Shown: positions 15,235-63,294, numbered from the stretch's first letter. The stretch: DNA of 64,000 nt from Syntrophaceae bacterium (GCA_013388635.1 JACAEX010000080.1:5803-69802), one strand, 5' to 3'. A program made the numbers and translations. The notes: generated from the letters alone by a model not told the origin.

Positions 15235-15282
15235 CGGTTTGATTTGTGCCAGCTGCTATTCTGAGGTCATTCCCTCGGGATA

Positions 15283-15350
15283 ATGGAATAGTGGAACAAT
15301 GGAATAATGAAGACAACCAATTTTCCATCATTCCATTATTTCGTTATTCC
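15283..15350 (-). repeat. array of TGGAAT/ATTCCA hexamer repeats forming an imperfect palindrome
   Basis: ATGGAATA-GTGGAACA-ATGGAATAATGAAG-acaaccaatt-TTCCATCATTCCATT-atttcg-TTATTCC gives three direct and three inverted copies. The coordinates are approximate. The array lies in the pgeF/DUF167 intergenic region and overlaps the pgeF stop. Confidence 0.4.
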
Positions 15351-34649: not shown

Positions 34650-37001
34650 CTAACTCCTATTCTTGGCGAGAGCGATCCGTAGGACTTCGTCCATATGTTT
34701 GACGGGCAGAAAGTCGATCTTCTTCCGGACGTAGGATGGAAGATCGGTAAGGTCCTTCTTGTTCAGATATGGGATGACAACCTTCTTGATATTGTTTCGC
34801 AAGGCGGCCAGGGCCTTCTCCTTCAGCCCCCCTACCGGCAGGACCCTTCCCCTCAGGGTGATCTCACCCGTCATGGCTACGTCTTTTCGGATGGGAGTAC
34901 CGGTGAGGACGGAGATCAGGGCGACAGCCATGGTAATCCCTGCGGAGGGCCCATCCTTCGGAATAGCCCCGGCAGGGACATGGATATGGATCTCCTTGTT
35001 ATTGAAGGCCTCGGGCTTAATCCGATACGCCTTGCTTTTCGAGCGGGCGTAAGTCAGGGCGGCCTGGGCCGACTCCTTCATCACCTCTCCCAGGTGACCC
35101 GTGAGGATGAGATTGCCCTTGCCCGGAGTGGTGGAGGCCTCCACATGAAGGATTTCACCACCGGTCTCTGTCCAGGCCAGACCCGTGGCCACGCCGATTT
35201 CATTCCGCTTCTGTTCTTCATCGGGTAAGAAGGGGGGAGGGCCCAAAAATCGATGAATATTTCTGGTATGGATGACGGTCTTTTCTTTCTTTCCCTCTGC
35301 CACTTTCCTTGCTACCTTCCGACAGATGGAGGCCAGTTGCCTCTCAAGGTTCCGAAGGCCTGCCTCCTGAGTATATTGAGAGATGATCTGGAGGATCGCC
35401 TTATCGGAGATCTGGAGTTCCTTCGGGCTGATCCCATTCTCCTCCATCTGCCGTGGCAGGAGGAAGGTTCGGGCGATCTTAACTTTTTCGATATCGGTGT
35501 ATCCGGGAAGGTGGATGATCTCCATCCGGTCTCTGAGAGCGCTCGGGATGGGATCGGTCAGGTTCCCTGTCGTGATAAACATGACCTTGGAGAGATCGAA
35601 GGGAACGTTGAGGTAATGGTCGCTGAACGCATAGTTCTGCTCCGGGTCGAGGACCTCCAGAAGGGCAGACGCGGGGTCTCCACGGAAGTCATTCCCGATC
35701 TTGTCCACCTCGTCCATCATAAAGACTGGGTTATTGGTACCGGCCTGTTTGATCGATTGGATGATCCTTCCTGGCATGGCACCGATATAGGTCCGGCGAT
35801 GTCCGCGTATCTCAGCCTCGTCCCGAATTCCGCCGAGGGAGATCCTGACAAATTTCCTGCCCAGCGCTCTGGCGATCGATCTTCCCAGAGAGGTTTTTCC
35901 CACTCCTGGGGGGCCGATGAAGCAGAGGATGGGCCCCTTCATCTTTCTCTTCAATTTGCGAACGCTCAGGAATTCTAAAATGCGTTCTTTCACCTTTTCC
36001 AGGTTGTAATGATCCTCATCCAGGACCTTCTTGGCCTTTCGAATATCGAGGCTGTCGACGGTCGATCTGGACCAGGGCATCTCCACCAGCCAGTCGAGGT
36101 AGGTGCGGACCATGGAGGCCTCTGCCGCATCGGGATGCATCTGCTCCAACCGACTCAGTTCGCGTCGGGCCTCCTTCTCCACCTCTTTTGGCATATTTGC
36201 CTTTTTGATCTTCTGACGAAGTTCTCTCAATTCCTTGGTCCGTTCATCCACCTCTCCGAGTTCACTTCGGATGGCCCTCATCTGCTCTCGGAGAAAGTAT
36301 TCCCTCTGACTTTTTGTGATCTCCTCCTTTGCCTGGGACTGGATCTTCGCCTGCATGGTGAGGACCTGGACCTCTTTTCCGAGAACCTCGTTGAGTGCCC
36401 GAAGTCTCTGGACAGGGTCGAAGATCTCCAGAATCTCTTGGGCCTTCTCCACGGTCAAATCCAAATTGGAGGCAACCAGATCAGCCAATCTTCCGGGATC
36501 GTCGACGCTTTCGAGGACGAACATCAGATCGGGCGAAAGGAGCTTTCCGTAAGAGACGATCCTCTCCAGCTGTTCTTTGACATTCCTCATCAGGGCTTCG
36601 GTCTCAAGGGTGATCTCCGTAATGAAGGGGTCTTTTATATTTTCTAACCTCACAAGAAAGAAAGGGGTGGTCCGGAGGACTTCTTTGATCGAGGCCTTGG
36701 AGAGACCCTGGATGAGGATCTTGACCTTTCCGTCAGGAAGCTTAAGCATCTTCATCACGATGGCCACTGTGCCCACTTGATAGAGGTCTTTCAGGGAGGG
36801 TTCCTCTTCGTTAAGATTTTGTTGGGCCACCAGGAAGATCAGTCGGTCCTTGGAGAGGGCCTCTTCCAGCGCCTTGATCGATTTTTCCCGGCTTATAAAG
36901 AGGGGGAGGACCATATAAGGAAAGACGACGATATCCCTGACGGGAAGGAGAGGAAGTGTTTCAGGAAGGGAGAGCAGGTCTTGTTCAGATCTTTTTTCCA
37001 T
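34650..37001 (-). CDS. lon: ATP-dependent Lon protease
   Basis: 783 aa. LON N-domain, AAA+ motifs ([11 protein letters not shown]) and the proteolytic Ser-Lys dyad region (PKDGPSAGI). Confidence 0.95.
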
Positions 37002-37473
37002 AACGTTCTAATATCTTTTGAATCAGATTGGAGGTCGAGGAGCCTTCTACAAAGGGAAGGAGGATGACCTCTCCACCCGATCCTTCGACCACCTCCCTTC
37101 CCACGATGGCCTCCTTGGTCCAGTCCCCGCCCTTGACGAGAACGTCAGGCTGAAGGGAGGAGATTAGCTCGAGAGGGGTCTTTTCATCAAATATGGTAAT
37201 GTAATCCACACATCCAAGGCTTGAGAGGATCTCTGCCCTCTCCTCCTGAGGAAGGATCGGTCGTTCAGGCCCTTTTAAGCTGCGGACCGAGGCATCGCTG
37301 TTCAACCCAACGACCAGTACATCACCAAGAGATTTGGCACTCTCGAGATACCGAACGTGGCCGAGATGGAGAAGATCGAAACAACCATTGGTGAAGACGA
37401 TTCGTCTTCCTTCTTTCTTGAGATCCTTGACAATCCGGCGAAGATCTTCTCTTGTCTGAATCTTTTCCTTCAA
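36985..37473 (-). CDS. D-glycero-beta-D-manno-heptose 1-phosphate adenylyltransferase-like cytidylyltransferase (RfaE domain II family)
   Basis: 162 aa. [13 protein letters not shown] nucleotidyltransferase motif and [17 protein letters not shown]. The start is TTG and overlaps the first codons of lon. Confidence 0.7.
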
Positions 37474-37526
37474 TGATTTCCTCTATTGAAACCGTATCAG
37501 ATTTAATACCCACAGTCAACGACCTA

Positions 37527-37768
37527 TTGGGGTCAGGTCTTGAAATATCATTTTTTGTTTACCTTTTCCCTCCCTGTCACTTTCCTTACCGCGGTATCGT
37601 CCTTTCTGCTGGATATTTATCCAGACCCGGCCGGTTTACAAATTGTACCAAGTGGCCATGGCCTCCGGGCTATGAAGGGAACCCCCCTGATCCTGATCGT
37701 CTCCGAATATCTTCTACCTCGTAACCAATCTAACAAAGATAAACTTATATTTCAAGACCTGACCCCAA
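37527..37768 (+). mobile_element. MITE-like element: 242 bp bounded by perfect 22-bp terminal inverted repeats
   Basis: TTGGGGTCAGGTCTTGAAATAT at 37527-37548 and its exact reverse complement ATATTTCAAGACCTGACCCCAA at 37747-37768. The roughly 198-bp interior has no convincing coding capacity; tracked ORFs 37452..37724 and 37540..37788 run through the repeats. It sits in the divergent rfaE-like/gntR intergenic region. Confidence 0.5.
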
Positions 37769-37823
37769 CTGGTGAAATTTTGTCTTGACAAGAATAATTA
37801 TCCGTGATACCAGAATCTTTAAA

Positions 37824-37851
37824 ATATATTAAAAATATTTTTTTAATATAT
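37824..37851 (+). promoter_or_regulatory. AT-rich palindrome ATATATTAAAAA-tat-TTTTTTAATATAT upstream of gntR
   Basis: Near-perfect dyad 25 nt upstream of the GntR ATG. It could be a candidate autoregulatory operator or an UP element. A TTGACA sits at about 37785. Confidence 0.3.
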
Positions 37852-37875
37852 CGGAATGGACGTCGGAGATAGGTC

Positions 37876-38520
37876 ATGAAGAGGAACGCCAGGAGCAAGA
37901 AAGCCGTTGTTTACGAGAACCTGAAGAACAGGATTATCAACAACCTCATCAAGCCAGGGGAACCTCTCAATGAGGGCAGCCTTTCAAAAGAGCTTAAAAT
38001 CAGCAAAACCCCGGTCAGGGAGGCACTGCAGCAGCTTGAAAAGGAGGGGTTTGTTGAAAATATCCCCGTAAAGGGAGCTTTCGTCTCCAAGATTTCTGTT
38101 CAGGACATCAGAGAGCTATTCGAGATAAGGGAGATCTTGGAATGTGAGGTGATCAAGCGGGCGGTGAACAAGGTGGATCCAGCCAAGGTCAGACTCCTCA
38201 GGGATAGGTTCGTCTCTTCCGAAAGCGAGAATAGCCGATCTGCTCCGAGTCACTTCAGGTCCGGAGATCAGATCCATACCTTTATTTTTGAGACCTTCGG
38301 GAACCGTCGTTTAATGGAGATTTATAAAAGGCTTCAGGATCATGTGGTCAGAAACCGCATCTTTTTCTTCGATCAATCACATCCGGGGCGGTCCGAAGAG
38401 TCCTTTAAAGAGCACCTGGAGATATTGGATGCCTTAGAGGCAAAAGATCCTTTAAGAGCGGAGCAGGCGGTCAGAAGCCACCTCAGAAACTCCTTAGAAT
38501 ATCTGAAAAAGATCTTATGA
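37876..38520 (+). CDS. GntR-family transcriptional regulator (FCD domain)
   Basis: 214 aa. HTH LSKELKISKTPVREALQQLEKEGFV plus an FCD C-domain. Confidence 0.8.
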   Translation: MKRNARSKKAVVYENLKNRIINNLIKPGEPLNEGSLSKELKISKTPVREALQQLEKEGFVENIPVKGAFVSKISVQDIRELFEIREILECEVIKRAVNKVDPAKVRLLRDRFVSSESENSRSAPSHFRSGDQIHTFIFETFGNRRLMEIYKRLQDHVVRNRIFFFDQSHPGRSEESFKEHLEILDALEAKDPLRAEQAVRSHLRNSLEYLKKIL

Positions 38521-38550
38521 AACAAAGAGTCGAGAGGGAGGGATCCATCC

Positions 38551-39222
38551 GTGATCCATGTCATCACCCAGATTGAGAGGCCTCCAAAGGAATTGATCGA
38601 TCGATTTCGTGGGATCGGGACGGCTACCGTTCATGAAGCATCCGGGAGAAAGGGGGCGGTCGATCCGGCGATCAAGCCGATCAGCAGAGGGGTTCGGATC
38701 TGTGGTCCTGCTTTCACGGTTCAGTGCCATCCCCTGGACAACCTGATGCTCCACAAGGCTCTGGAAAAGGCTCAGCCTGGAGATGTCCTGGTGGCAACGG
38801 TTGGAGGACATTATGAAGGCGGCTATTTCGGGGGGTTGATGGCCACCTCCGCCCTCGCCAAAAAGATCGGGGGTTTGGCGATTGACGGGTGCATCCGGGA
38901 TTCTGCTGAAATCATCAGAATGGGATTTCCGATATTCTGCCGTGGGTTCTGCATTCGTGGAACGACCAAGACGGTCCTGGGTTCGATCAATCATCCAACT
39001 CTTTTTGGTGGGGTCTTGGTCAACCCCGGCGATTTGATCCTCGGGGATGATGACGGCATGGTTGTTGTTGAGCGGACAGAATCCGAAGAGGTACTGGAGA
39101 AATCGATCAAAAGGGCAGAGGCGGAGAAGTTGAAATCGGAGAAACTGAAAGCCGGGATCTCCAGCGTCGAGCTGAACCAATTGGAAAAGGTCTTCGAATT
39201 TTTAGGCCTGGTTGAAGGTTAG
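38551..39222 (+). CDS. RraA-family protein (4-hydroxy-4-methyl-2-oxoglutarate aldolase / oxaloacetate decarboxylase-like)
   Basis: 223 aa. RraA/MenG-like fold motifs (GDVLVATVGG...GGLMA...IDGCIRD). GTG start with a GAGAGGGAGGG RBS. Confidence 0.7.
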   Translation: MIHVITQIERPPKELIDRFRGIGTATVHEASGRKGAVDPAIKPISRGVRICGPAFTVQCHPLDNLMLHKALEKAQPGDVLVATVGGHYEGGYFGGLMATSALAKKIGGLAIDGCIRDSAEIIRMGFPIFCRGFCIRGTTKTVLGSINHPTLFGGVLVNPGDLILGDDDGMVVVERTESEEVLEKSIKRAEAEKLKSEKLKAGISSVELNQLEKVFEFLGLVEG

Positions 39223-39226
39223 TTTC

Positions 39227-40273
39227 ATGAAAATTCAGGTAGAAAAATTGAAGGAGGCCTCGGTCCAGATCCTAAGGGGGTTAAAGGCCACCGATGAGGA
39301 GGCAGCCTTGGTGGCAGAGTGTCTGGTCCGGGCCGAGATGAGGGGGATCGATACCCACGGGGTCTATTTTTTGAAACTTCTATCGGACCGGATTGATGCT
39401 CAGATGATCCGTATTCCCACCGCTCTGAAGGTGATCCGCGAAGACAAGACGACTGCGGTCCTCGACGGAGGGAATGGATTAGGCCAGGTCGCCGCTCATC
39501 GGGCCATGAAGATGAGCATTCAAAAGGCCCGGGATTTCGGGACGGGAATGACACTCATCCGAAACACAAACCATGTCGGTATCCTTGCCTTCTATACTCT
39601 CATGGCGGCTGAGCAAGGAGTGGTCGGAATCATGATGAGCAATTCAGCCCCTTCGATGTCCCCCTGGGGAGGGGCAGAGCCTTTTTTAGGGACGAACCCA
39701 CTCTCCATTGCCATTCCAGGCGGTTTAGATGGTCCTGTCGTGCTGGATATGTCGTCGAGCGTCGTTGCCCGGGGAAAGATTCGACGGGCCGAGCGAATGA
39801 AGGAAAGCATCCCCTTGGGTTGGGCTCTCGATGAGACAGGGTCTCCAACCACAGACCCTGCGGCTGCCCTAAGGGGTACGCTCCTGCCTATCGGGGGTCC
39901 AAAGGGGTATGGCTTGGCCCTGATGATCGATATCCTTGCCGGCCTGCTTTCCGGTTCGCGGTATGGCCCTGAGGTCAAGACGTTTCACCAGCCCGAGGGA
40001 CCAACCGGAATCGGCGTCTTCACCATGGCCATCGATATTGAGAGATTTATGCCTCTTCCCCAATTCAGACGATTGATGGAATCTTACGTCACATCGATCA
40101 AGGGGACGAGGAAGGCGAAAGGGGTTTCCAGGATCTATCTACCAGGAGAGATCGAACGCGAAAAAGAGAAGCAGAGCTCAGCAGAGGGGATTGAGATTGG
40201 TTCAGAGCTGGCAAAGGATCTGAACACCCTTCTTCAAAAAGCTGGGAGCCGGCTGAGATTGGGGGAAGAGTAG
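39227..40273 (+). CDS. Ldh_2-family NAD(P)H-dependent oxidoreductase (malate/L-sulfolactate/ureidoglycolate dehydrogenase-type)
   Basis: Family motifs are present (GIDTHG...NHVG...GTNPLSIA...GGPKGYGLALMIDILAG). The ATG at 39227 is preferred over the tracked TTG at 39212. Confidence 0.8.
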   Translation: MKIQVEKLKEASVQILRGLKATDEEAALVAECLVRAEMRGIDTHGVYFLKLLSDRIDAQMIRIPTALKVIREDKTTAVLDGGNGLGQVAAHRAMKMSIQKARDFGTGMTLIRNTNHVGILAFYTLMAAEQGVVGIMMSNSAPSMSPWGGAEPFLGTNPLSIAIPGGLDGPVVLDMSSSVVARGKIRRAERMKESIPLGWALDETGSPTTDPAAALRGTLLPIGGPKGYGLALMIDILAGLLSGSRYGPEVKTFHQPEGPTGIGVFTMAIDIERFMPLPQFRRLMESYVTSIKGTRKAKGVSRIYLPGEIEREKEKQSSAEGIEIGSELAKDLNTLLQKAGSRLRLGEE

Positions 40274-40280
40274 AAGGGCC

Positions 40281-42011
40281 ATGAAGTGGATTATTCGAGT
40301 CAATACGAGAACCGGGAAGATTACGAAGCAGGAGGCCTCAGCCGAGGAGAGGCGATGGGGAGGCCGACTGCTGGTCTCAAAATTCCTTCTGAGAGAGGTC
40401 CCTCCCACATGCGATCCCCTTGGACGTCACAACAAGCTGATCATCGCCCCAGGGCTCTTAGGAGATACCCTGGTGACTACGGCCGGCAAGTTTTCAGTTG
40501 GAGGCAAGAGCCCGCTGACGCGTGGCGTTAAGGAGAGCGATGTCGGAGGAGAGGCCGGGAAGAAGATGGCCAGGCTCGGGATCAAGGCCCTGGTGCTGGA
40601 GGATATTCCTGAAAGAGCCGTGACGAAGATCCTCACGATCACCGCGAATCAAATCGCGCTCTCCGATTCTCCTGAGTTGGGAGGGAAGCCTGTCTCGGAG
40701 ACGATTCAACTCCTCCGGAGGCGCTTCGGTGGCCAGGTCGGAATGATCTGCATCGGCCCCGCGGGAGAGATGAAGATGGCAAGCGCAGGTGTAGCGGTGA
40801 CCGATGTCCAGGATGTACAGATCCGCTACGCGGCCAGAGGAGGGCTGGGCGCGGTGATGGGCTCCAAAGGGATTAAGGCGATCGTCGTGGATGATGCAGA
40901 GGCTGTGCCGGTTCAGGTTTCTGATGAGGCCCTTCTTCGAGAGGCAAGCAAAGCCCTGGCTCAAGCCATCTTAGCCGATCCCAAGACAGAAAACAGACAT
41001 CGGTATGGAACCCCTGCAATCCTCATGGTGGCAAATGAAATCGGCCTTCTTCCAACTCGAAATTTCAGCGCGGGTCAGTTTGAAAAAGCAGAGGAGATCG
41101 CTGGAGAACGGATCGCCGAAGTGATCGGGGCGCGTGGGGGGGAGGGGTGTTCAGGGGCACCCTGTTTGAGAGGCTGCGTGATTTCATGCTCCAATGTCTT
41201 TCCAGACCCATCGGGGAAGAAGACGGTTGCCTCGATCCAATATGAGAACATCGCCCTTCTTGGGCCAAACTGTGGGATTGGCGACCTTGACAGCATCGCG
41301 GAGCTGAACCGTCTTTGCAATGAGGTGGGTGTGGATACGATCGAGACCGGAGCTGCGATAGCGGTCGCCATGGAGGCCGGGGTGATTTCATTCGGTGACG
41401 CCCAAGGGGCCAAAGACCTGGTTCGGCAGATCGGCCAGGGCACCTACCTTGGACGGATCCTTGGAAATGGGGTGGTGATCACGGGCCGCGTATTGGGCGC
41501 AAGGCGTATCCCGGCTGTTAAGGGTCAGGCGATTCCAGGCTATGATCCTCGTGCATTGAAGGGCAACGGCGTCACCTACATCACTTCTCCAATGGGAGCG
41601 GACCACACCGCCGGAAATGCCTTCGAGACCGCTCAGTCCATCAATCCAATCGGTAAAGAAAATCAGGTTGAGATTTCGAGGAGGCTTCAGATCAGAGCAG
41701 CTATCCTCGACACCATGGGCCTATGTCTTTTCACTCGGCCTCCCTTTGTAAAGAGACCAGAACTCTTTGCTCATTTCTTGAGGGGACGCTACGGATGGAA
41801 CGTGGGTTACGAAGACGTCCAGCGAATTGGGATCGATGCGCTGGAGACAGAAAGAGAGTTTAACCGGCGTGCCGGGGTTTCAGAAGAGTTTTATGATATT
41901 CCGGAATTCATGAGGGAAGAACCGCTGCCTCCGAGAAATTCTGTTTTCGACCTCTCTCTGGAGGAGGTGCAGCGAATCTGGGAGGTCAAGATCCCGAACG
42001 ATATGTTTTAG
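40281..42011 (+). CDS. aldehyde:ferredoxin oxidoreductase (tungsten/molybdopterin AOR family)
   Basis: 576 aa. AOR N-domain (MKWIIRVNTRTGKITKQE...) and the C-terminal domains with CxxC 4Fe-4S ligands (RGGEGCSGAPC...C). Confidence 0.9.
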   Translation: MKWIIRVNTRTGKITKQEASAEERRWGGRLLVSKFLLREVPPTCDPLGRHNKLIIAPGLLGDTLVTTAGKFSVGGKSPLTRGVKESDVGGEAGKKMARLGIKALVLEDIPERAVTKILTITANQIALSDSPELGGKPVSETIQLLRRRFGGQVGMICIGPAGEMKMASAGVAVTDVQDVQIRYAARGGLGAVMGSKGIKAIVVDDAEAVPVQVSDEALLREASKALAQAILADPKTENRHRYGTPAILMVANEIGLLPTRNFSAGQFEKAEEIAGERIAEVIGARGGEGCSGAPCLRGCVISCSNVFPDPSGKKTVASIQYENIALLGPNCGIGDLDSIAELNRLCNEVGVDTIETGAAIAVAMEAGVISFGDAQGAKDLVRQIGQGTYLGRILGNGVVITGRVLGARRIPAVKGQAIPGYDPRALKGNGVTYITSPMGADHTAGNAFETAQSINPIGKENQVEISRRLQIRAAILDTMGLCLFTRPPFVKRPELFAHFLRGRYGWNVGYEDVQRIGIDALETEREFNRRAGVSEEFYDIPEFMREEPLPPRNSVFDLSLEEVQRIWEVKIPNDMF

Positions 42012-42106
42012 AGGAGGGCGAAGGAAGAAGTTCGGAGTTATGAGTTCAGAGAAGGAGACGAGGATCAGAGGAGCGTTCTTTGTCCGAGAAAAAGGAGGGC
42101 TCTTAG

Positions 42107-42853
42107 ATGGAATTGAAGGAATTGGTGGCCATTGTCACAGGTGGAGGGAAAGGGATCGGGAAGACCATTGCTGAAAAGTTTTACGGAGAGGGGGCCAGGG
42201 TGGCGATATGGGACATCGACCTTTCCTCCGCTGAGAATTTAGCCATTTCATTGGATCCTTCAGGCGATAGGACGATGGCGGTTAAGGTGGATATTACCAA
42301 TGAGGGAGAAGTTGCCAACGGGACTTCCGAGGTGCTCAAAAAGTTTAAACGGATTGACATCCTTGTCAACAATGCGGGAATTTCCCGGCACAGACCCATT
42401 GAAGAGATGAGCCTTGAAATTTTTGAGTCGGTCCTGAAGGTCAATTTGACCGGGACGTTTCTCTGTTGCCGGGCGGTCACCCCGATAATGAAAAAACAGG
42501 GAGGAGGAAAAATCATCAATATTGCCTCCCTCGGAGGCCGAACGGGTCGACCCGGAGTCGGGATCAATTATGCCGCATCCAAGGCAGGGGTCATCGGCTT
42601 AACCCAGACCCTGGCCCGAGAACTCGGGCCTTCCGGGATTTATGTGAATGCCATTGCTCCAGGCCCCATCCTGACGGAACAGACCAAACAGTATCCAGCA
42701 GAAGTCTTCGCAACATGGAATGTGGGCCGGGCCATCCAAAAAGATGGTCTGCCAGAGGATGTGGCCGACGCAGCCATCTTCCTCGGTTCAGCCCGTTCTG
42801 ATTGGGTGACGGGTGTCACCTTAGATGTCAATGGAGGGATCCTCATAAGGTAG
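42107..42853 (+). CDS. SDR-family oxidoreductase (3-oxoacyl-ACP reductase-like)
   Basis: TGGGKGIGKTIA Rossmann motif, the NNAG motif and the YxxxK catalytic motif (YAASKAG). Confidence 0.85.
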   Translation: MELKELVAIVTGGGKGIGKTIAEKFYGEGARVAIWDIDLSSAENLAISLDPSGDRTMAVKVDITNEGEVANGTSEVLKKFKRIDILVNNAGISRHRPIEEMSLEIFESVLKVNLTGTFLCCRAVTPIMKKQGGGKIINIASLGGRTGRPGVGINYAASKAGVIGLTQTLARELGPSGIYVNAIAPGPILTEQTKQYPAEVFATWNVGRAIQKDGLPEDVADAAIFLGSARSDWVTGVTLDVNGGILIR

Positions 42854-42910
42854 ATCTCCTGCCTCTCCTCTGAAGGAAAAGGCGGGCGGAAATCTGAAAA
42901 TTAGGAGACG

Positions 42911-43273
42911 ATGATGTCCGAGCTAAAAGTTGTCCATATGAAGGATGTGAAAGGCGAGCGTCGAGACCCTCCCCGAATGTCGTGGATCCTCGTTTCTGAA
43001 AAGACCGTGGGGTCGCAGAATCTGGCCATGGGAGTCAACGAGACCTATCCAGGGGGCATGGTACCGGAACACAAGCATGAGAATGAAGAGGAGGTCATGT
43101 TTTTTGTTTCAGGGAGAGGAGTCTTTGTGACTGAAGACAGGGAGATTCCCCTTGAGCCAGGCGTCTGCATCTACAATCCGCCCGGCAAGCTTCACCAGAT
43201 TTTGAATACGGGGGACGAGGTCTTGAGATTCATCTGGATCTATTCCCCGCAGTTACCCAGCCATAGGAAGTGA
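42911..43273 (+). CDS. cupin-domain protein
   Basis: 120 aa. Cupin motifs G(x)5HxH(x)3-4E...G and PxGxxHxxxN (PEHKHENEEEVMFFVSGRG...PPGKLHQILNTG). Confidence 0.7.
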   Translation: MMSELKVVHMKDVKGERRDPPRMSWILVSEKTVGSQNLAMGVNETYPGGMVPEHKHENEEEVMFFVSGRGVFVTEDREIPLEPGVCIYNPPGKLHQILNTGDEVLRFIWIYSPQLPSHRK

Positions 43274-43313
43274 TGGTGAAAGGTAAAAAGTATATTAAAT
43301 GAGGAGGATAAAG

Positions 43314-44279
43314 ATGGGAAATTGGAAGTTACCACCGGAAGGCGGGCACATGGATAAGCCCAGCAAGATCTATTTCCAGACGATGACGAAAAAGGATGTG
43401 GAGGAGCGGCTTAAGAAGAACGATCTGATCCTCATCCCGCTCGGCTCCACAGAGAACCATGGAGCGGCCGGTCCCTACGGCGAGGATATCTTTATGGTGA
43501 CCCGAATGGCAGAGGAGGTGGCCAGGGTAACCGGGTGTACGGTCGCTCATCCGGTCTGTTACGGATCCCACCCCTATCATCATTTGGGACAGCCCGGAAC
43601 CGTCGTCATTCCGGACGATGTCTTCTCCGCTTATCTCAGGGCGATCATGGCCGGTTTCTGGAACACGGGTTTCCGGAAACAGATCTTCATGAGCCTCCAC
43701 GGCCAGGAGTATATCGTCCCCTCGGCGATCAATGAGTTCGGGAAGAAGTACCAGGTCCCTGCGATCATCATCTTCCTCGACATCCCGAGGATCATGGGAG
43801 ACACCTTAAAGGATAAGGCCCACGGAGGCCCTTATGAGAATCCGTTCCAGCATGCCTGTGAAGCAGAGACCTCCCTCTCGATGGCCCTCTTCCCTGAGAT
43901 GGTCAAGCTCGAAGATGCCGAGGACAATACACCCTGGGGATTTTTGCCTCCGGGCCATCTGGACAGGGGAGGGGACATCTACGGGAATCCGATCCCAGGC
44001 CATTGCCAGATCGGTTGCGGCGGCATTGAATGCGTCATCTATCCTGAGGGGGTCATCGGAAAGCCCTCGCTGGCCGACCCGAGAAAGGCATACAAGAGCG
44101 TTGAAGTCTACCTCGATTATGTGAAGAAACTTCACGACGATATTATGGCCAAGTTTCCTGCAGGGGTGTTGCCTGAGAGCAAATATTTGAGCCAGCGACC
44201 CAAGGAGGAGATTGAGGCTCTCCTGAAGGGCCCGATGAAAGGTGGAAGGCATCTCTATACCGTAGCCTTTCCGCCATAA
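43314..44279 (+). CDS. creatininase-family amidohydrolase
   Basis: LIPLGSTENHG motif of the creatininase family, with a GAGGAGG RBS before the ATG at 43314. The tracked ORF starts at 43299. Confidence 0.75.
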   Translation: MGNWKLPPEGGHMDKPSKIYFQTMTKKDVEERLKKNDLILIPLGSTENHGAAGPYGEDIFMVTRMAEEVARVTGCTVAHPVCYGSHPYHHLGQPGTVVIPDDVFSAYLRAIMAGFWNTGFRKQIFMSLHGQEYIVPSAINEFGKKYQVPAIIIFLDIPRIMGDTLKDKAHGGPYENPFQHACEAETSLSMALFPEMVKLEDAEDNTPWGFLPPGHLDRGGDIYGNPIPGHCQIGCGGIECVIYPEGVIGKPSLADPRKAYKSVEVYLDYVKKLHDDIMAKFPAGVLPESKYLSQRPKEEIEALLKGPMKGGRHLYTVAFPP

Positions 44280-44354
44280 CGAATAACCGCATTGAACAAA
44301 GGATATTCCTACGCTCTGCCCTTTGCGATTCGCGATTCAAAGAGGGGGATTTTT

Positions 44355-45386
44355 ATGAAAGCGATTATTAAGGCAAGTCAGGAGGCAGGATCTCTTGAGG
44401 TCAAAGAGCTTCCCGTGCCAAAGCCGGGTCCGGGTGAAATCCTTGTCCAGATGAAGGCTGCGGGGATCTGTTACAGCGATGTGATGATCCTCACGAATAA
44501 GTATAAAGGGAGAGTGCCTGTTCCCATCCCGTTGATCATGGGACATGAGGGAGCAGGCGTGGTGGCAGAGGTGGGTCAAGGGGTGGGTCACGTTAAGCCT
44601 GGAGACAGAGTAGGACTCAATCCCCTGTGGGGCTGCGGGCAATGTGTAAACTGTCTGAACGGATTTCCGAACATGTGTATGCAGTGGAGACACCTTGGCA
44701 TCACCTGCGACGGGACGTTTGCCGAATACCGGGTGGTGCCTGATTTTGTCGCTTACAAATTGCCGGAAAGCATTTCGATGATCGATGCTGCATTTCTTGA
44801 GCCCATCAGCCTGACCGTCCGAACCCTCGAGCATGTGAGACCCATGGTAGGAGATACCGTGGCCATCATTGGCCCTGGGTCGATCGGCATGTTTCATCTC
44901 CAGGCCTTTAAGTCAGCCGGAGCTTCGGTCGTCATCGTGATCGGTCTTGATCAGGATGCGAAACGATTTGAGGTTGCGAAGAGGCTTGGGGCGGATTTGA
45001 TTGTCAACGGCAGCAAAGAGGATGTGGTGAAACGGGTCAAAGAGATTACAAACGGGGCAGGGGTGGATATCGTGGTGGAGACAGCCAATCATCCTTCAAC
45101 CGTTCCTCTTGCCATCAACCTGGCAGCCGCCAGAGGCCGTGTGGTTCTCTTCGGTCTCTATCCCGAGGCCACCATGAGTCCGCTCACCTTTTTGAGGAGT
45201 GGTCTAACCATGGCTGGAGATGTGGCAGTCGTTCCAAGACAGTTTCTCAGAGCCATCCGCTGGGTGGAACATAAGAAGGTGTTGGCTGAGCCGATGATTA
45301 GCCGACGGTTTAAGCTGGATCAGGCGAAAGAGGCATTCGAGGCTTTTTACCAGGGAGATATTGTAAAGGTGCCTTTTGAGATGTAG
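44355..45386 (+). CDS. zinc-dependent alcohol dehydrogenase (MDR family, threonine/sorbitol dehydrogenase-like)
   Basis: GHEGAG zinc site, GCGQCVNCLNG structural zinc Cys4, and GPGSIG NAD motif. Start at the internal ATG 44355 with an AGAGGGGG RBS. Confidence 0.85.
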   Translation: MKAIIKASQEAGSLEVKELPVPKPGPGEILVQMKAAGICYSDVMILTNKYKGRVPVPIPLIMGHEGAGVVAEVGQGVGHVKPGDRVGLNPLWGCGQCVNCLNGFPNMCMQWRHLGITCDGTFAEYRVVPDFVAYKLPESISMIDAAFLEPISLTVRTLEHVRPMVGDTVAIIGPGSIGMFHLQAFKSAGASVVIVIGLDQDAKRFEVAKRLGADLIVNGSKEDVVKRVKEITNGAGVDIVVETANHPSTVPLAINLAAARGRVVLFGLYPEATMSPLTFLRSGLTMAGDVAVVPRQFLRAIRWVEHKKVLAEPMISRRFKLDQAKEAFEAFYQGDIVKVPFEM

Positions 45387-45516
45387 GGGCTTTCCCAGAA
45401 AAAAGATTCCTCACTTTGCTTGGAAAGAGAAACGACCTCTCCCCGTCCGAGGCGAAGCTGAGGCAATCTACTTTGGGTATCAACCGGGGAGGGATTAAAG
45501 AAAGGAGGAAGGAGAG

Positions 45517-46548
45517 ATGAGAAGGTTTCAGTTGTTTTCAGGTATCATGGTCGGTCTGTTTGTCATAGCCTTGGCCATTGCGCCTGCTTGGGCGGCTCCC
45601 ATTGAGATCAAGTTTGGCCATGTCGATCCACCCGATGTCTGTACATCCAAAAAGGGAGCGGCCGGCGCAGCCTTTAAGAATATTGTGGAGGCTGAAACAG
45701 CGGGTGGCGTAGAGGTCAAGGTCTTTCCGGCCGGTCAGCTCGGCGGAGAGCGGGAGTTGATCGAGGCCACCAAACTTGGGACCATCCAGATGTGCATGGT
45801 CTCTGCGGCAATCGCAGGATATTATAAGGAAGCCCAGGTGCTGGATATTCCCTATCTCTTTTCTTCGGCTCCTGTTGCCTGGAAGGTGATGGATGGCCGG
45901 TTTGGAAAAGAGATGGCAGAGGACTGTCTGAAGAAGACAGGAATGCGAGTCCTGGCCTACGGAGAGACGGGGTTCAGGAACTTCACCACCTCGGTCCGGC
46001 TGATCAAATCGCCTGCCGACATGAAGGGCCTGAAAATCCGAGTCATGGAGAGCCCGGTCTATATCAATATGGTCAAGGCGCTTGGAGCTGCTCCCACTCC
46101 GATCGCCTGGCCTGAGACCTATACCGCTCTTCAACAGAAGGTCGTGGATGGCCAGGAGAATCCGGTTTCCGTGATCCTTTCCGTCAAATTTTTTGAGGTT
46201 CAAAAATACCTGACGCTCGATGGCCATTCCTACGGTGTGGATTTCATTCTGATCAACGATAAATTTTTCCAGGGCCTTCCCAAAGAGACCCAACATATCC
46301 TAAAGACAGCGGCCATCAATGCCGGCCTGATCGGAAGGGGGATTCAACAACTCAACTCAGCCATTGGGGTCTCCCAATTGAAAGAAAAGGGGATGGAGGT
46401 CTATTCTCCCAATCCCAAAGAAAGGGCGATGTTCCGGGAGGCAGCGCAGAAGCCGGTCATGGAGTACATCGAAAAGCAGATTGGAAAGGCCTGGATCGAT
46501 AAATTGATGAAGGCGGTAAAAGAGGCTGAGGCTGAATTGGCCAAGTGA
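45517..46548 (+). CDS. dctP: TRAP transporter substrate-binding protein DctP family (second system)
   Basis: 343 aa. Signal peptide, DctP family, with a strong AGGAGGAAGGAGAG RBS. Confidence 0.85.
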   Translation: MRRFQLFSGIMVGLFVIALAIAPAWAAPIEIKFGHVDPPDVCTSKKGAAGAAFKNIVEAETAGGVEVKVFPAGQLGGERELIEATKLGTIQMCMVSAAIAGYYKEAQVLDIPYLFSSAPVAWKVMDGRFGKEMAEDCLKKTGMRVLAYGETGFRNFTTSVRLIKSPADMKGLKIRVMESPVYINMVKALGAAPTPIAWPETYTALQQKVVDGQENPVSVILSVKFFEVQKYLTLDGHSYGVDFILINDKFFQGLPKETQHILKTAAINAGLIGRGIQQLNSAIGVSQLKEKGMEVYSPNPKERAMFREAAQKPVMEYIEKQIGKAWIDKLMKAVKEAEAELAK

Positions 46549-46623
46549 TCTGACGGAATCCCCCCGATCCCTCTCAACAAAGGAGGGGGAGGGGGGATTG
46601 AAACGAGGGGATTGTCTTTAGCC

Positions 46624-47133
46624 ATGGAGAAATTTCAAAACCGGATCCTCCGGGTCGAAGAGGGTTTACATGGGTTGATGAGGTGGACCCTTTTTCTGAT
46701 TACAGGGGCTATGACTGGGATCGTCCTCCTCGGGGTTCTCTTTCGGTATATCCTGAGAGCTCCACTTCCCTGGTCAGAGGAATTGGCCCGATATCTGATG
46801 GTATGGGGTGCCTCTCTTGGGGCCTCGGTCGCCTACCGGGAGGGAGCCCATATCGCGATCACCATCCTCGTTGATAAGTTCCACGGGATGACGGGTCGGG
46901 TGATCACATCGATCACTCAAATCATCGTCATTGTCTTTATGACCATCATCGTGTTCAAGGGGTTTGTTCTTGTTTTTGAGCTTTCAGGACAGACCTCTCC
47001 TGCGATGGAGATTCCCATGGCGTGGCCCTATTTGGCGATTCCCGTCGGTTGTCTCTTCATTCTCTTTGAGGCCGTCATCACCACGTTTTGGAAGGGCCAG
47101 CGTATGGGAAAGAAAGGGACGGAGCCCTTATGA
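46624..47133 (+). CDS. dctQ: TRAP transporter small permease DctQ family (second system)
   Basis: Start at ATG 46624 (MEKFQNRILRVEEGLHGLMRWTLFLITGA...). Four TM segments. ATGA overlap with dctM. Confidence 0.75.
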   Translation: MEKFQNRILRVEEGLHGLMRWTLFLITGAMTGIVLLGVLFRYILRAPLPWSEELARYLMVWGASLGASVAYREGAHIAITILVDKFHGMTGRVITSITQIIVIVFMTIIVFKGFVLVFELSGQTSPAMEIPMAWPYLAIPVGCLFILFEAVITTFWKGQRMGKKGTEPL

Positions 47134-48413
47134 ATCTCCTGATCGCGATCAGCTTTTTCGTGTCTTTGGCGTTGGGGATTCCCATTGCCTTTGTGATGGG
47201 AATCAGCGCTTTGGCAGCCCTCTTTGCGCTGCCCAATGTGCCACTCCACCTGATCCCTCAGCGGCTCTTCACAGGCATGGACTCTTTTCCCATCATGGCC
47301 GTCCCCTTCTTTATCCTCGGTGGTGATCTGATGAACGCTGCAAAGATTACGGACCGGATTCTTGATTTTTCCAAGCTGCTGGTGGGGAGGATCCGGGGCG
47401 GGCTGGGCCATGTCAATATTGTGGGCAGCATGTTTTTTGCTGGGATCAGCGGTTCCGCAGTGGCGGATGCCTCATGTCTTGGGTCCATACTGATTCCGGC
47501 CATGCAAAAGGATGGTTATGAGGTTCATTACGCCTCTGCGATCACCGCGTCAGCAGCCATCATCGGTCCGATTATCCCTCCGAGCATTCCCATGGTGGTG
47601 CTTGCCCTGGTGGCGAACCTCTCCGTAGGGGCGCTCTTTTTAGGCGGGGTGCTGCCAGGGGTTTTTATCGGGCTGGGATTGATGGCGGTGAACTATGTGA
47701 TCTCAAGAAGAAGAGATTATGCGAGGGTTAACCAACCCCTGACGTTCAGGATATTTTTCAGTACCCTTATCGGCGCCATCATTCCTCTTCTGATGCCGCT
47801 GATCATCATGGGAGGAATTCTGAGCGGGGTTTTCACCCCTACGGAAGCGGCTTCCATTGCTGTGGCCTATGCCCTTTTTGTGGGGTTCTTCGTTCTTCGG
47901 ACCCTCACGCTGAAAGACCTTCCGAGGATCTTTTTCAGGAGCGCGGTCGCTACCAGCACGATCCTGATTGTGATGGCAATGGCCAATGCCTTCAGCTGGA
48001 TTCTGGCGACCCAGCAGATCCCTCAACAGGTTAGCCAGTTCATCTTTTCCATCTCCAGGGATCCTTATGTCATCCTTTTTCTGATCAATATCTTTCTCCT
48101 GATCGTGGGTTGTTTCCTGGAGGGGCTGGCCGCCATCATTCTGATCGTCCCGATCCTCATGCCTGTGGTGACACAGCTTGGAATCCACCCCATCCATTTT
48201 GCCCTGATCGTGGTGGTCAACCTGATGATCGGTCTCCTGACACCGCCCCTGGGGCTCTGCCTCTTTGTGGTCTGCGGTATTTCCAAGATAAAGCTCGGGC
48301 CCCTTTTTAAAGAGGTCGTCCCATTCCTGATCGTGGAGATCGTCATTCTATTCGTGATCACCTATATGCCCTGGTTTACGCTGACCCTTCCTCGCCTGTT
48401 TAAGCTTTTGTGA
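47130..48413 (+). CDS. dctM: TRAP transporter large permease DctM family (second system)
   Basis: Start at ATG 47130 (MNLLIAISFFVSLALGIPIAFVMG...). Paralogous to dctM at 3141. Confidence 0.85.
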   Translation: MNLLIAISFFVSLALGIPIAFVMGISALAALFALPNVPLHLIPQRLFTGMDSFPIMAVPFFILGGDLMNAAKITDRILDFSKLLVGRIRGGLGHVNIVGSMFFAGISGSAVADASCLGSILIPAMQKDGYEVHYASAITASAAIIGPIIPPSIPMVVLALVANLSVGALFLGGVLPGVFIGLGLMAVNYVISRRRDYARVNQPLTFRIFFSTLIGAIIPLLMPLIIMGGILSGVFTPTEAASIAVAYALFVGFFVLRTLTLKDLPRIFFRSAVATSTILIVMAMANAFSWILATQQIPQQVSQFIFSISRDPYVILFLINIFLLIVGCFLEGLAAIILIVPILMPVVTQLGIHPIHFALIVVVNLMIGLLTPPLGLCLFVVCGISKIKLGPLFKEVVPFLIVEIVILFVITYMPWFTLTLPRLFKLL

Positions 48414-48472
48414 CCCCTGTTTTACCGATTTCAGACTTGACAATCCTCCGGGATTCCTTTAGTTTTTAAAAA

Positions 48473-49078
48473 ATGAAAAACCGTCTCATCCTGGCCTCAA
48501 GGTCTCCCCGTCGATATGAGTTGCTCAAACAAATCGGTCTTGATTTCGATGTGATCCCGAGCGGGATCGAAGAGGACTTCGTTCCTGACGAGTCTCCCAG
48601 GGAACATGTGATTCGATTGGCAGAGGCAAAGGCCTTCGATGTAGGGAACCGATACCCTGACCGTTGGGTGATTGCCGCGGATACCATGGTCTATGTGGAT
48701 GGTGATGTCTTAGGAAAGCCGAAGACCATGGAAGAGGCCATGGAGATGTTGAAACGCCTCAGCGGAAGGGAACACCGGGTGTTGACCGGATTTTCTGTCC
48801 GGCACTTTGGGAAAGGGATCCGAGATCAGGAGGCGGTCGAGACGGCGGTGAGGGTGAAGGGCCTGACACCTGCTGAGATGGACTGGTATGTCCGGACAGG
48901 AGAGCCTTTTGATAAGGCAGGAGGTTATGCGATTCAAGGGATCGGATCCTTCATGATCGAGTCGATCCGGGGATCATACACCAATGTGGTGGGCCTTCCG
49001 GTCTGCGAGGTGATTCAGATGCTCAATCGCCTGGGGGCCCTGACCATTGCAGATTTCAGATTGCAGATTTCAGATTGA
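48473..49078 (+). CDS. maf: Maf-family nucleoside triphosphate pyrophosphatase
   Basis: LILASRSPRR...GKP...ADTVV-type Maf motifs (ILASRSPRRYELLKQIG; IAADTMVYVDGDVLGKP). Confidence 0.85.
   Translation: MKNRLILASRSPRRYELLKQIGLDFDVIPSGIEEDFVPDESPREHVIRLAEAKAFDVGNRYPDRWVIAADTMVYVDGDVLGKPKTMEEAMEMLKRLSGREHRVLTGFSVRHFGKGIRDQEAVETAVRVKGLTPAEMDWYVRTGEPFDKAGGYAIQGIGSFMIESIRGSYTNVVGLPVCEVIQMLNRLGALTIADFRLQISD
49049..49076 (+). repeat. 2 x 14-bp tandem repeat (GCAGATTTCAGATT; heptad AGATTNC x4) inside the maf 3' end
   Basis: The plus strand reads gcagatttcagatt gcagatttcagatt and encodes the Maf C-terminal IADFRLQISD. It ends at the yggS TTG start. Confidence 0.7.
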
Positions 49079-49761
49079 ATATGTCATCCATCAAAGAAAA
49101 TTATGTAAAAGTGATAGAGCGAGTGGAGAAGGCAGCGAAGAGATCGGGAAGAGATCCAAAGGAGATCAAGCTGGTTGCTGTCTCCAAGACGGTGGAGCCT
49201 GCTCGCATCAAAGAGGCCATCGAGGCCGGAGTCTCCATTCTTGGTGAGAACTACGTTCAGGAGGCGCAGAGGAAGATCGAGGAGATCGGTCGATCAGTCT
49301 CCTGGCATTTCATCGGACACCTTCAATCGAACAAGGCAAAGTATGCGGTCCGACTTTTTGATATGATACACTCTTTGGACAGTATCGCCCTGGCCGAGGA
49401 GTTGAACCGGAGAGCTGAAAGAGAAGGCAAGGTGATGGAAGTGATGATCGAGGTCAATCTCTCCGGAGAGGCCAGCAAATTTGGTGCGGAAGGTGAGAAG
49501 GCCTTGGACATCGCAAGAAGGGTTCTGGATCTTAAGAATCTTTCATTAGTGGGATTGATGACCATGCCACCCTACTTCGATTCGCCTGAGATGAGCAGGC
49601 CATACTTCATTCAACTTCGAGAGTTAAAGGAGAGGATGGCAGCGCAAGGCATCTCTCTAAGGGAGCTTTCCATGGGCATGTCGAATGACTTTGAAATCGC
49701 CATCGAAGAAGGGGCCACCTATGTGAGGGTGGGAACAGCGATCTTTGGACCACGAAGATGA
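49075..49761 (+). CDS. yggS: YggS-family pyridoxal-phosphate homeostasis protein
   Basis: PLP-binding lysine context (KLVAVSKT) and the alanine-racemase N-domain-like barrel. TTG start overlapping the maf stop. Confidence 0.85.
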   Translation: MNMSSIKENYVKVIERVEKAAKRSGRDPKEIKLVAVSKTVEPARIKEAIEAGVSILGENYVQEAQRKIEEIGRSVSWHFIGHLQSNKAKYAVRLFDMIHSLDSIALAEELNRRAEREGKVMEVMIEVNLSGEASKFGAEGEKALDIARRVLDLKNLSLVGLMTMPPYFDSPEMSRPYFIQLRELKERMAAQGISLRELSMGMSNDFEIAIEEGATYVRVGTAIFGPRR

Positions 49762-55304: not shown

Positions 55305-55323
55305 CCATTACTCCAAAAGCGGT

Positions 55324-56706: not shown

Positions 56707-56740
56707 AAAACCTCCCATCCGCCGCTCCCGGCCTGATCCG

Positions 56741-57967: not shown

Positions 57968-58070
57968 CTGCTTTCTCCTCCCTTTGTATGAAAAGTTTCT
58001 ATTTAAACTATAACCCAACCTGAGCGATTCAGCATCTCTGAGGGAGAGCAGACATTCTAATCCGTTTACC

Positions 58071-59426: not shown

Positions 59427-59480
59427 CTTCTTATCTCTCCTTTCTGGTGGAGATTCTGATCGGTCTCTTCAAATCCAAAA

Positions 59481-60329: not shown

Positions 60330-60384
60330 CTCTTGATCTCCTTATCCCCACCGGTGATGAGAATCCCTCTCTTCAGGTTGTGAA

Positions 60385-61080: not shown

Positions 61081-61085
61081 ACGCC

Positions 61086-61883: not shown

Positions 61884-61992
61884 CGATCATCACTTCTCCA
61901 CGAGGCATCTGAGATCTGAACGCTTCGTCACTCTTCAGTCCCATCTTTTTAGGGCGTGGGAGGAGTTCGATCTCCCCCACGCCAGCCTTTCA

Positions 61993-63237: not shown

Positions 63238-63294
63238 AATCTCCTCCTCATATAATATATTTGGAAAATGAGCATAGGCGTAGCGCCTACTCTT

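Follow-up and report, generated by a model that had tools for sequence, protein, structure and literature searches.

A conserved Syntrophaceae gene cluster that may open the quinate ring by hydrolysis without oxygen

We analysed a stretch of 64,000 nucleotides from a Syntrophaceae bacterium (GCA_013388635.1, JACAEX010000080.1:5803-69802; hereafter the window) and describe here a cluster of eleven genes, in which the gene of a GntR/FCD regulator is followed by those of an RraA-like aldolase, an Ldh_2-family dehydrogenase, an aldehyde:ferredoxin oxidoreductase (AOR), a short-chain dehydrogenase/reductase (SDR), a cupin, a predicted IolN-type hydrolase, a zinc-dependent alcohol dehydrogenase (Zn-ADH) and a tripartite ATP-independent periplasmic (TRAP) importer. 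The operon is best read as an oxygen-free route in which the ring of quinate would be opened by hydrolysis, without aromatisation, and its carbon delivered as pyruvate and oxaloacetate; we hold this reading with roughly even confidence. What shifts our guess of the substrate to a cyclitol carboxylate, such as quinate, is the combination of the IolN-type hydrolase, an aldolase that probably belongs to the 4-carboxy-4-hydroxy-2-oxoadipate (CHA) clade and the dehydroquinase and shikimate-dehydrogenase genes that neighbour the cluster in relatives. The operon is an assembly of known families into what is probably a new pathway, and a full-text literature search returned no description of the cluster or of an anaerobic hydrolytic route for quinate.

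Enzymes and importer of the cluster

All 11 open reading frames (ORFs) were located on the + strand between 37876 and 48413, with strong Pfam scores for each family, so that the eleven co-oriented genes of the families named in a preliminary description of this region were confirmed. In that description the hydrolase was assigned to the creatininase family. The fold family is correct, whereas the closer relationship had been missed: the protein is predicted to be an IolN-type C-C hydrolase that opens carbocycles. It scored 519.1 bits with the model NF041098 (IolN, 3-dehydro-scyllo-inosose hydrolase; cutoff 245), as against 74.4 bits with the creatininase model TIGR04448 (cutoff 235) and 33-43 bits with solved creatininases. 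The residues E52, H54, D63, H134 and E137, which we tentatively take to be the counterparts of the binuclear metal ligands of creatininase, do not vary in 12 diverse homologs and reach at least 95% conservation in a set of 63. Many homologs carry the name 3-dehydro-scyllo-inosose hydrolase at NCBI and JGI. Among 1.84 billion representatives at 50% identity, the family is reduced to a single full-length one (P0220, 59% identity); behind it come full-length relatives at 38-43% identity, among them a Thermococcus group that NCBI also names IolN.

The RraA-like C-C lyase of the preliminary description was recovered as such, and by its sequence we further place it, tentatively, in the CHA aldolase clade, a likely membership that had gone unnoticed. 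The protein scored 220.7 bits with NF006731 (cutoff 179), and its best PDB match, with 168 bits along its full length, was the HMG/CHA aldolase 3NOJ of Pseudomonas putida (the runner-up had 74 bits). Its R116, D117 and E192 align to R123, D124 and E199 of 3NOJ; the first two of these residues, R116 and D117, are kept in no fewer than 95% of 42 orthologs. In a 2010 study by Wang et al., the P. putida enzyme is said to use Arg123 as catalytic residue and Asp124 as metal ligand, together with Glu199' and Asp102.

The AOR has both the AFOR_N and the AFOR_C domain, and the four cysteines, the glutamate and the histidine of the family are present. Its best PDB match was the Pyrococcus furiosus enzyme 1AOR (234.6 bits), with which the cysteine cluster, the Glu of the 'YE' motif and the His of the 'DH' motif aligned; C295, C299, C303 and C482 recur in 50-51 of 51 orthologs. 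From the P. furiosus structure we assume that the cysteines hold the [4Fe-4S] cluster and that the Glu and His belong to the active site, and the metal is presumably tungsten. The AOR has an annotated counterpart of 100% identity in a Syntrophaceae metagenome-assembled genome (MAG). We also considered a BamB-type ring reductase and rejected it, as 4Z3W gave 55.7 bits against the 234.6 bits of 1AOR and the cluster contains no gene for an electron-transfer partner subunit.

The Ldh_2 protein stayed under all NCBIfam equivalog cutoffs, including those of sulfolactate dehydrogenase (NF040650, 297.6 bits against 500) and of AllD (240.8 bits against 356). Its closest structures were 1V9N, a malate dehydrogenase, and then 2X06, a sulfolactate dehydrogenase. 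This proximity to archaeal malate and sulfolactate dehydrogenases suggests a 2-hydroxy-acid dehydrogenase whose substrate would carry a second acidic group. In the cupin, the metal motif H53-x-H55...E59/E60 with H95 is conserved in 40 orthologs.

The importer is a complete set of P, Q and M subunits according to Pfam. When DctP was compared with the PDB entries of SiaP, the mutants R147K, R147E and R147A scored 1.4, 2.3 and 2.8 bits under the wild type, from which we deduce that the DctP of the window has an Arg in that column; its R175 is at least 95% conserved in 46 cluster-linked DctP proteins. Where an Arg equivalent to SiaP Arg147 is present, TRAP systems are limited to ligands with a carboxylate or, rarely, a sulfonate or phosphate group (PMC4646407). 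The ligand of DctP is thus proposed to be a carboxylate. Among solved binding proteins, 4NQ8, 4PAK, 4PDH and 4PDD were the closest, and the isethionate binder 8T9T was also among the structure matches. An acid substrate is further suggested by the FCD-type regulator and by the HAAT ABC or major facilitator superfamily (MFS) transporters that occur in other loci; among the recurrent neighbour gene clusters annotated in related loci there was no sugar-type transporter.

Conservation of the cluster and its variants

We used the hydrolase as anchor, scanned one genome per species, obtained at least 581 matching stretches and fetched the best 80 loci; being top matches to the query, these are biased toward close relatives. 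Gene counts in the loci rest on tblastn, because genes had been called only crudely in the loci and shadow ORFs hid some of them. At the protein level, the homologs of the hydrolase form more than 1100 sequence clusters at 90% identity, and the top 120 have identities of 63-92%.

In 42 of the 59 loci with at least 5.5 kb of upstream sequence, the genes for the RraA-like aldolase, Ldh_2, AOR and cupin were all present and co-oriented with the hydrolase gene, and the block RraA-Ldh_2-AOR-cupin-IolN was collinear. These loci span at least five phyla; the carriers are Syntrophales and other Thermodesulfobacteriota, Spirochaetota, NC10, thermophilic Clostridia (Thermovenabulum, Fervidicola) and Anaerolineae. 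Cultured organisms among them are the isolate Desulfacinum infernum DSM 9756 (L019), Thermovenabulum gondwanense (L005) and Fervidicola ferrireducens (L060). In the reverse direction, all three sampled AOR orthologs (81-83% identity) sit within the same cluster type. Since the gene order recurs in dozens of unrelated genomes, the grouping is not due to chance.

The cupin gene accompanies the hydrolase gene in 50 of the 59 loci. The SDR gene was found in 26 of them and is missing where extra Zn-ADH or GFO dehydrogenases occur, and the dehydrogenase sets vary between SDR plus Zn-ADH, two Zn-ADHs, and two GFO plus two Zn-ADHs while the core stays constant. Transporters likewise range over several TRAP lineages, HAAT-type ABC and MFS. 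The conserved core is therefore RraA-Ldh_2-AOR-cupin-hydrolase, and the ring dehydrogenases and the transporter are interchangeable between loci. Such variation around a constant core is what one would predict for a fixed lower pathway that is supplied by two exchangeable ring oxidations. One of the three loci sampled through the AOR (L086; GCA_026415035.1, JAOAHX010000004.1) shows directly that modules are exchanged while the site stays unchanged: its cluster occupies the chromosomal position that it has in the window (HrcA, AIR-synthase-like, Lon, cytidylyltransferase, cluster, Maf), with two GFO_IDH_MocA and two Zn-ADH genes in place of SDR and Zn-ADH and with a different order of the TRAP genes.

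A gene for a type I or type II dehydroquinase (DHquinase_I, DHquinase_II) and/or for a protein of the shikimate-dehydrogenase family lies within 10 kb of the hydrolase gene in 27 of 84 distinct loci (32%), often within the operon; none of the seven Lachnospiraceae loci is without one. Genomes hold roughly one or two such genes among thousands, so by a rough estimate chance would place one near the hydrolase gene in about 1% of cases. IolN identity is 69% between the loci with and without these neighbours and 71-72% within the two groups; this equal similarity seemingly makes them one functional family.

Several variants of the locus were also seen. The gut Lachnospiraceae loci (L066, L070, L074, L076, L077, L080 and L081; Blautia, Faecalicatena, Hespellia) combine IolN with two Zn-ADHs, AP_endonuc_2, an OYE/pyridine-nucleotide-disulfide reductase, a type I dehydroquinase, MFS and TRAP transporters and a protein like 3-hydroxy-3-methylglutaryl-CoA (HMG-CoA) lyase that scores 229 bits, and have no RraA, Ldh_2, AOR or cupin. 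This may be another lower branch for the same ring-opened product; HMG-CoA shares the motif CH2-C(OH)(X)-CH2-CO with the product predicted below, which we count as one of the pointers to the quinate skeleton. A second variant, type D (L055, L068, L069, L072, L073, L078, L079 and L083; Anaerolineae, Thermoflexales and a Thermotogae MAG), has an IclR regulator, cupin, a conserved 304-aa protein, IolN, AOR, Ldh_2 and a HAAT ABC transporter and lacks the RraA-like aldolase, which the 304-aa protein may replace as lyase. Neither this protein nor a 210-aa protein matched a Pfam family even at E <= 1, and the HAAT binding protein of these loci had only distant matches to Leu/Ile/Val binders, which give no hint of the ligand. 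In five further loci (L022, at 11591-13376, and L025, L037, L063 and L071), two tandem type II dehydroquinase genes and an AP_endonuc_2 gene adjoin the IolN cluster or lie inside it. The AP_endonuc_2 protein of this trio, for which candidate functions are a dehydroshikimate-dehydratase-like enzyme or an isomerase, had no PDB sequence match and no NCBIfam match. The otherwise typical cluster of L087 carries an SGL/gluconolactonase-family gene (15270-16091) between two DctP genes; its product may be a lactonase for a lactone form of the substrate.

Proposed route from quinate

The gene families, the conserved cluster, the carboxylate-type binding protein and the company of shikimate-pathway-type genes in relatives are what we observed; the identity of the substrate, the order of the steps and the roles of the individual dehydrogenases and of the cupin are those we infer from them. 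Quinate would be imported by the TRAP system. The SDR and the Zn-ADH would then oxidise the C3 and C5 hydroxyls, giving 3-dehydroquinate and from it the symmetric 3,5-didehydroquinate, a cyclic 1,3-diketone that would be the direct analogue of diketo-inositol. The IolN-type hydrolase would cut a ring C-C bond of this diketone, giving HOCH2-CO-CH2-C(OH)(COOH)-CH2-COOH. The cupin could turn the terminal ketol into a 2-hydroxy-aldehyde; IolB and hydroxypyruvate isomerase are precedents for isomerases between ketols and aldehydes. The tungsten AOR would oxidise the aldehyde to the acid with reduction of ferredoxin, Ldh_2 would oxidise the 2-hydroxy acid to CHA, and the RraA-like aldolase would split CHA into pyruvate and oxaloacetate. 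In a variant of the scheme, a dehydrogenase would oxidise the primary alcohol directly and the AOR would make the 2-oxo acid.

The net reaction would be quinate + 2 H2O -> pyruvate + oxaloacetate + 8 [H], and the route would use each enzyme once and balance in carbon and in redox. CHA is a C7 tricarboxylate, and its tertiary carbinol with a carboxyl group and two CH2 arms matches C1 of quinate structurally. Since hydrolytic opening of the IolN type and a dedicated tungsten AOR clade would lead to CHA, the route would converge on an intermediate of aerobic protocatechuate 4,5-cleavage and gallate degradation. The preliminary description had proposed an anaerobe's pathway in which an imported organic acid passes through aldehyde and acid intermediates, and we count this claim as supported.

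Several points weigh against quinate. The route is drawn from sequence and gene context. The IolN family is strongly conserved (54-100% identity over 85 loci compared), and its sole characterised member acts on diketo-inositol and not on a quinate derivative; 3,5-didehydroquinate is, to our knowledge, not an established metabolite. By tblastn, neither a dehydroquinase nor a shikimate dehydrogenase is encoded in the window, and an inositol theme would also suit the genes that neighbour related clusters, GFO_IDH_MocA (18 loci) and AP_endonuc_2 (30 loci). The binding proteins closest to DctP (4NQ8, 4PAK, 4PDH and 4PDD) bind small acyclic hydroxy-acids and are not known to bind quinate. The aldolase scored 205.5 bits with TIGR02798, under its stricter cutoff of 304.5, and has Gly95 where the P. 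putida enzyme has Asp102. In NCBIfam and PDB the cupin has generic relatives only, with weak PDB matches, the SDR has only generic FabG-like matches in NCBIfam, and the Zn-ADH gets no specific assignment (IolM, 199.9 bits, cutoff 450; Tdh, 225 bits, cutoff 458).

Alternative substrates

An inositol is an unlikely substrate on present evidence. Here a Thermotoga-type upper pathway, with two dehydrogenations of myo- or scyllo-inositol and cleavage by IolN to 5-dehydro-L-gluconate, would be joined to a new lower pathway in which the cupin, AOR, Ldh_2 and RraA-like aldolase process the hexonate. The equivalog score of the hydrolase and the names of its homologs speak for this, the GFO_IDH_MocA and AP_endonuc_2 neighbours resemble the IolG and IolO/IolE superfamilies, and the Thermotoga maritima pathway is documented (Rodionova et al. 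2013, PMID 23441918, as far as summarised in PMC5931981). However, no IolG, IolM or IolO equivalog was found in any cluster type: the Zn-ADHs of all types miss the IolM cutoff (183-225 bits against 450), the GFO protein of a related locus reached 150.6 bits against an IolG cutoff of 355, and the AP_endonuc_2 proteins match no NCBIfam model. In the window, tblastn detected neither a GFO gene nor the IolN-linked lineage of AP_endonuc_2. The transporter keeps its carboxylate-binding Arg, whereas free inositols have no carboxylate, and the cluster has no dehydratase or kinase that could convert 5-dehydro-L-gluconate to a 2-oxo-3-deoxy acid, the substrate of a pyruvate aldolase. The enrichment of dehydroquinase and shikimate-dehydrogenase genes would also be left unexplained.

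An acyclic sugar acid or its lactone, for instance ascorbate-derived 2,3-diketo-L-gulonate, a hexuronate or an aldarate, appears improbable. The creatininase-fold enzyme would then be a lactonase or diketone hydrolase. The aldolase would free an aldehyde for oxidation by the AOR, as in non-phosphorylative Entner-Doudoroff routes; aldolase and AOR are a logical pairing, and one related locus has an SGL-family lactonase. Ldh_2 and DctM match YiaK (164 bits) and YiaN (275 bits) of the Escherichia coli diketogulonate system, but these scores are far under the equivalog cutoffs, and the cluster has neither the kinase, decarboxylase and epimerases of yiaK-S nor sugar-acid dehydratases. The solved binding proteins closest to DctP presumably bind small polyhydroxy acids, in agreement with such a substrate; the firm IolN-family membership of the hydrolase and the co-occurrence with dehydroquinase would remain without explanation.

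We consider it very improbable that the cluster degrades an N-heterocycle or ureide, with the creatininase-fold enzyme as cyclic amidohydrolase, the cupin resembling ureidoglycine aminohydrolase and Ldh_2 resembling ureidoglycolate dehydrogenase. The cupin does match (S)-ureidoglycine aminohydrolase weakly (E about 1e-6), Ldh_2 has its 240.8 bits to AllD, and genes of the Creatinase_N/Peptidase_M24 and Asp_Glu_race families occur close to some of the related clusters. Yet the creatininase model gave 74 bits against 519 for IolN, AllD fell under its cutoff of 356, the M24 genes were seen in only 6 loci and not within the conserved core, and Pfam annotation showed no urease, amidase or carbamate-handling genes in the cluster; the RraA aldolase, AOR, SDR and Zn-ADH have no part in such a route.

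We give almost no credence to the organosulfonate pathway of the sulfolactate or 2,3-dihydroxypropane-1-sulfonate type, to which the preliminary description had drawn an analogy: L-sulfolactate dehydrogenase is the best NCBIfam match of Ldh_2, 2X06 its second-best structure, and TRAP systems can carry sulfonates (witness 8T9T among the DctP matches), but the 297.6 bits fall well under the NF040650 cutoff of 500, and annotation of the cluster, its flanks and the related loci examined turned up no sulfo-lyase, no glycyl-radical desulfonating enzyme, no sulfoacetaldehyde acetyltransferase and no sulfite exporter.

Regulation and gene arrangement

Upstream of gntR we found the box TTGACA (37785-37790) and, behind it, a perfect 12-nt inverted repeat, ATATATTAAAAA-N4-TTTTTAATATAT (37824-37851), whose arms are 100% complementary. 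The TTGACA is invariant and an AT-rich palindrome is conserved 5' of gntR in all six orthologous loci compared. The palindrome is a candidate operator of the GntR/FCD regulator, and the conserved box and palindrome fit one regulated, probably autoregulated, promoter. The GntR/FCD gene leads the cluster in most related loci; its protein reaches no NCBIfam equivalog. Consensus promoter and terminator scans were at the level of shuffled sequence (7 against 6.8 expected and 19 against 13.8), and the terminator scan gave no convincing intergenic terminator in the cluster. We looked for a split into separate transcription units and for scattered orthologs and saw neither, the gene order being collinear in relatives. 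The view that the genes form one substrate-specific unit thus holds, with collinear orthologs, a single conserved promoter-plus-palindrome before gntR and no convincing internal terminators.

The features are listed in Table 1. For five genes, ribosome-binding sites and ortholog lengths point to a later start as the likely one. The likely start of dctM forms an ATGA overlap with the stop of dctQ, and with the five later starts the intergenic gaps are 4-130 nt, the widest being the 130 nt before dctP and the 95 nt before the SDR gene. The RraA, Ldh_2 and AOR genes are spaced by 4 and 7 nt. The gene order agrees with two modules, RraA-Ldh_2-AOR and SDR-cupin-hydrolase-ZnADH.

Table 1. Features of the cluster, in window coordinates
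Feature	Coordinates	Strand	Basis
Putative -35 box TTGACA (37785-37790) and inverted repeat (37824-37851)	37785..37851	+	candidate GntR/FCD operator, predicted
GntR regulator with FCD domain (FadR subfamily)	37876..38520	+	PF00392 59.7 bits, PF07729 85.5 bits
RraA-like class II aldolase, assigned to HMG/CHA-aldolase (LigK/GalC/ProA) clade	38551..39222	+	NF006731 220.7 bits
Ldh_2-family 2-hydroxyacid dehydrogenase	39212..40273 (likely start 39227)	+	PF02615 400 bits
Aldehyde:ferredoxin oxidoreductase family, 576 aa	40281..42011	+	AFOR_N 183 bits, AFOR_C 238.7 bits
SDR	42107..42853	+	adh_short 201.5 bits
Small single-domain metal cupin, 120 aa	42911..43273	+	Cupin_2 61.7 bits
Predicted IolN-type hydrolase, creatininase fold, 321 aa	43299..44279 (likely start 43314)	+	NF041098 519.1 bits
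Zn-dependent medium-chain ADH, 343 aa	44292..45386 (likely start 44355)	+	ADH_N 106.5 bits, ADH_zinc_N 84.1 bits
TRAP solute-binding protein DctP, signal peptide	45517..46548	+	PF03480 287.8 bits
TRAP small membrane subunit DctQ	46612..47133 (likely start 46624)	+	PF04290 117.9 bits
TRAP large membrane subunit DctM	47088..48413 (likely start 47130)	+	PF06808 403.2 bits, TIGR00786 428.7 bits

The flanking genes are housekeeping genes, Lon and a cytidylyltransferase on the - strand upstream and Maf, YggS-like, LysA, DapF and DapB downstream. Between yggS and lysA, a 359-aa protein is encoded at 49758-50837 (+), whose sole match is a C-terminal fibronectin type III-like domain. Rfam gave zero matches at E <= 0.1 within 37000-49000.

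Elsewhere, the window encodes SelA, a 2-oxoacid:ferredoxin oxidoreductase, NuoEF-like proteins and a B12-radical-SAM protein, which fit a strict anaerobe. At 546-10746 (+), a second GntR/FCD regulator (4444-5178) occurs with AP_endonuc_2 (546-1355) and a TRAP system (DctP 1497-2579, DctM 2913-4418), followed by the gamma, alpha and beta subunits of a 2-oxoacid:ferredoxin oxidoreductase (5420-8403) and by NuoE/NuoF-like proteins (8400-10746). This AP_endonuc_2 differs in lineage from the IolN-adjoining proteins of other genomes. What looks like another catabolic cluster lies at 54033-63972 (-) and encodes a HAAT-type ABC transporter (Peripla_BP_6, two ATPases and a permease), a metallo-beta-lactamase-fold protein, an amidohydrolase, a 425-aa HMGL-like protein and an FAD-linked oxidase with a CCG/4Fe-4S partner.

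Significance

Few soluble plant acids are as abundant as quinate and shikimate, which are released from chlorogenic acids, for instance, and end up in anoxic soils, sediments, digesters and guts. Anaerobes that ferment quinate appear in older physiological reports, and we know of no gene-level pathway for the mineralisation of quinate or shikimate by strict anaerobes. If our reading is true, the conserved cluster would be this missing pathway, and it would give a distinct and abundant clade of tungsten AORs a physiological role. Ring hydrolysis of the IolN type would then reach beyond inositols and provide an anaerobic entry to CHA, and the automatic names "3-dehydro-scyllo-inosose hydrolase" and "creatinine amidohydrolase" would need correction on thousands of metagenomic proteins. 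More tentatively, and with somewhat less than even confidence, we suggest that the clusters represent a widespread oxygen-independent, non-aromatising pathway for hydroaromatic plant acids, which would take in quinate directly, shikimate via dehydroquinase in relatives and conceivably gallate, formally a dehydrated 3,5-didehydroquinate.

Comparison with known systems

The yiaK-S system of E. coli for 2,3-diketo-L-gulonate resembles the present cluster in having an Ldh_2 dehydrogenase and a TRAP importer in one operon. Equivalents of LyxK, SgbH, SgbU and SgbE are missing from the window cluster, whereas IolN, AOR and the RraA aldolase are absent in the E. coli system.

The inositol pathway of T. 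maritima comprises IolG, IolM, IolN and IolO (Rodionova et al. 2013, as summarised in PMC5931981). The likeness, seen through the NCBIfam model, lies in the double dehydrogenation of a cyclohexane polyol to a cyclic 1,3-diketone and in the opening of this diketone by an IolN-type hydrolase. Unlike it, the window cluster has no IolG, IolM or IolO equivalogs and no GFO_IDH_MocA or AP_endonuc_2 gene, and its lower pathway would consist of cupin, AOR, Ldh_2 and RraA aldolase, with dehydroquinase and shikimate-dehydrogenase neighbours in relatives. Its importer is a TRAP system of the carboxylate type and its regulator is of the GntR/FCD family, whereas the Thermotoga system presumably has a sugar ABC importer and a ROK-family regulator.

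With LigK/GalC/ProA (3NOJ) the cluster shares a full-length RraA-like homolog that keeps the catalytic Arg-Asp pair and the C-terminal Glu, and the proposed products, pyruvate and oxaloacetate, are the same; the homolog differs in scoring under the TIGR02798 cutoff and in having Gly in place of Asp102. In the protocatechuate 4,5-cleavage and gallate pathways, CHA arises from oxygen-dependent cleavage of the aromatic ring by LigAB or GalA, followed by LigI/LigJ/GalB. By Pfam annotation these enzymes are absent from our cluster, in which CHA is proposed to come from hydrolysis of a non-aromatic ring in an anaerobe. The cluster belongs to neither the Thermotoga inositol nor the LigK/GalC pathway, as the defining partner enzymes of both are absent.

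Anaerobic degradation of phloroglucinol and resorcinol offers a parallel at the level of chemistry, as strict anaerobes there open six-membered rings by hydrolysing a cyclic beta-diketone. These routes differ in starting from reduced phenols, in using other enzyme families and in their CoA-dependent downstream steps, and, unlike the window cluster, they are not known to involve an AOR or RraA aldolase.

Classical catabolism of quinate and shikimate proceeds through quinate/shikimate dehydrogenase, dehydroquinase and dehydroshikimate dehydratase to protocatechuate, which is then attacked by oxygenases. The proposed substrate and the first intermediate, 3-dehydroquinate, are the same in both, and genes of the dehydroquinase and shikimate-dehydrogenase families occur in loci related to ours. 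The difference lies in the fate of the ring, which, with no dehydratase to protocatechuate evident here, is proposed to be opened hydrolytically.

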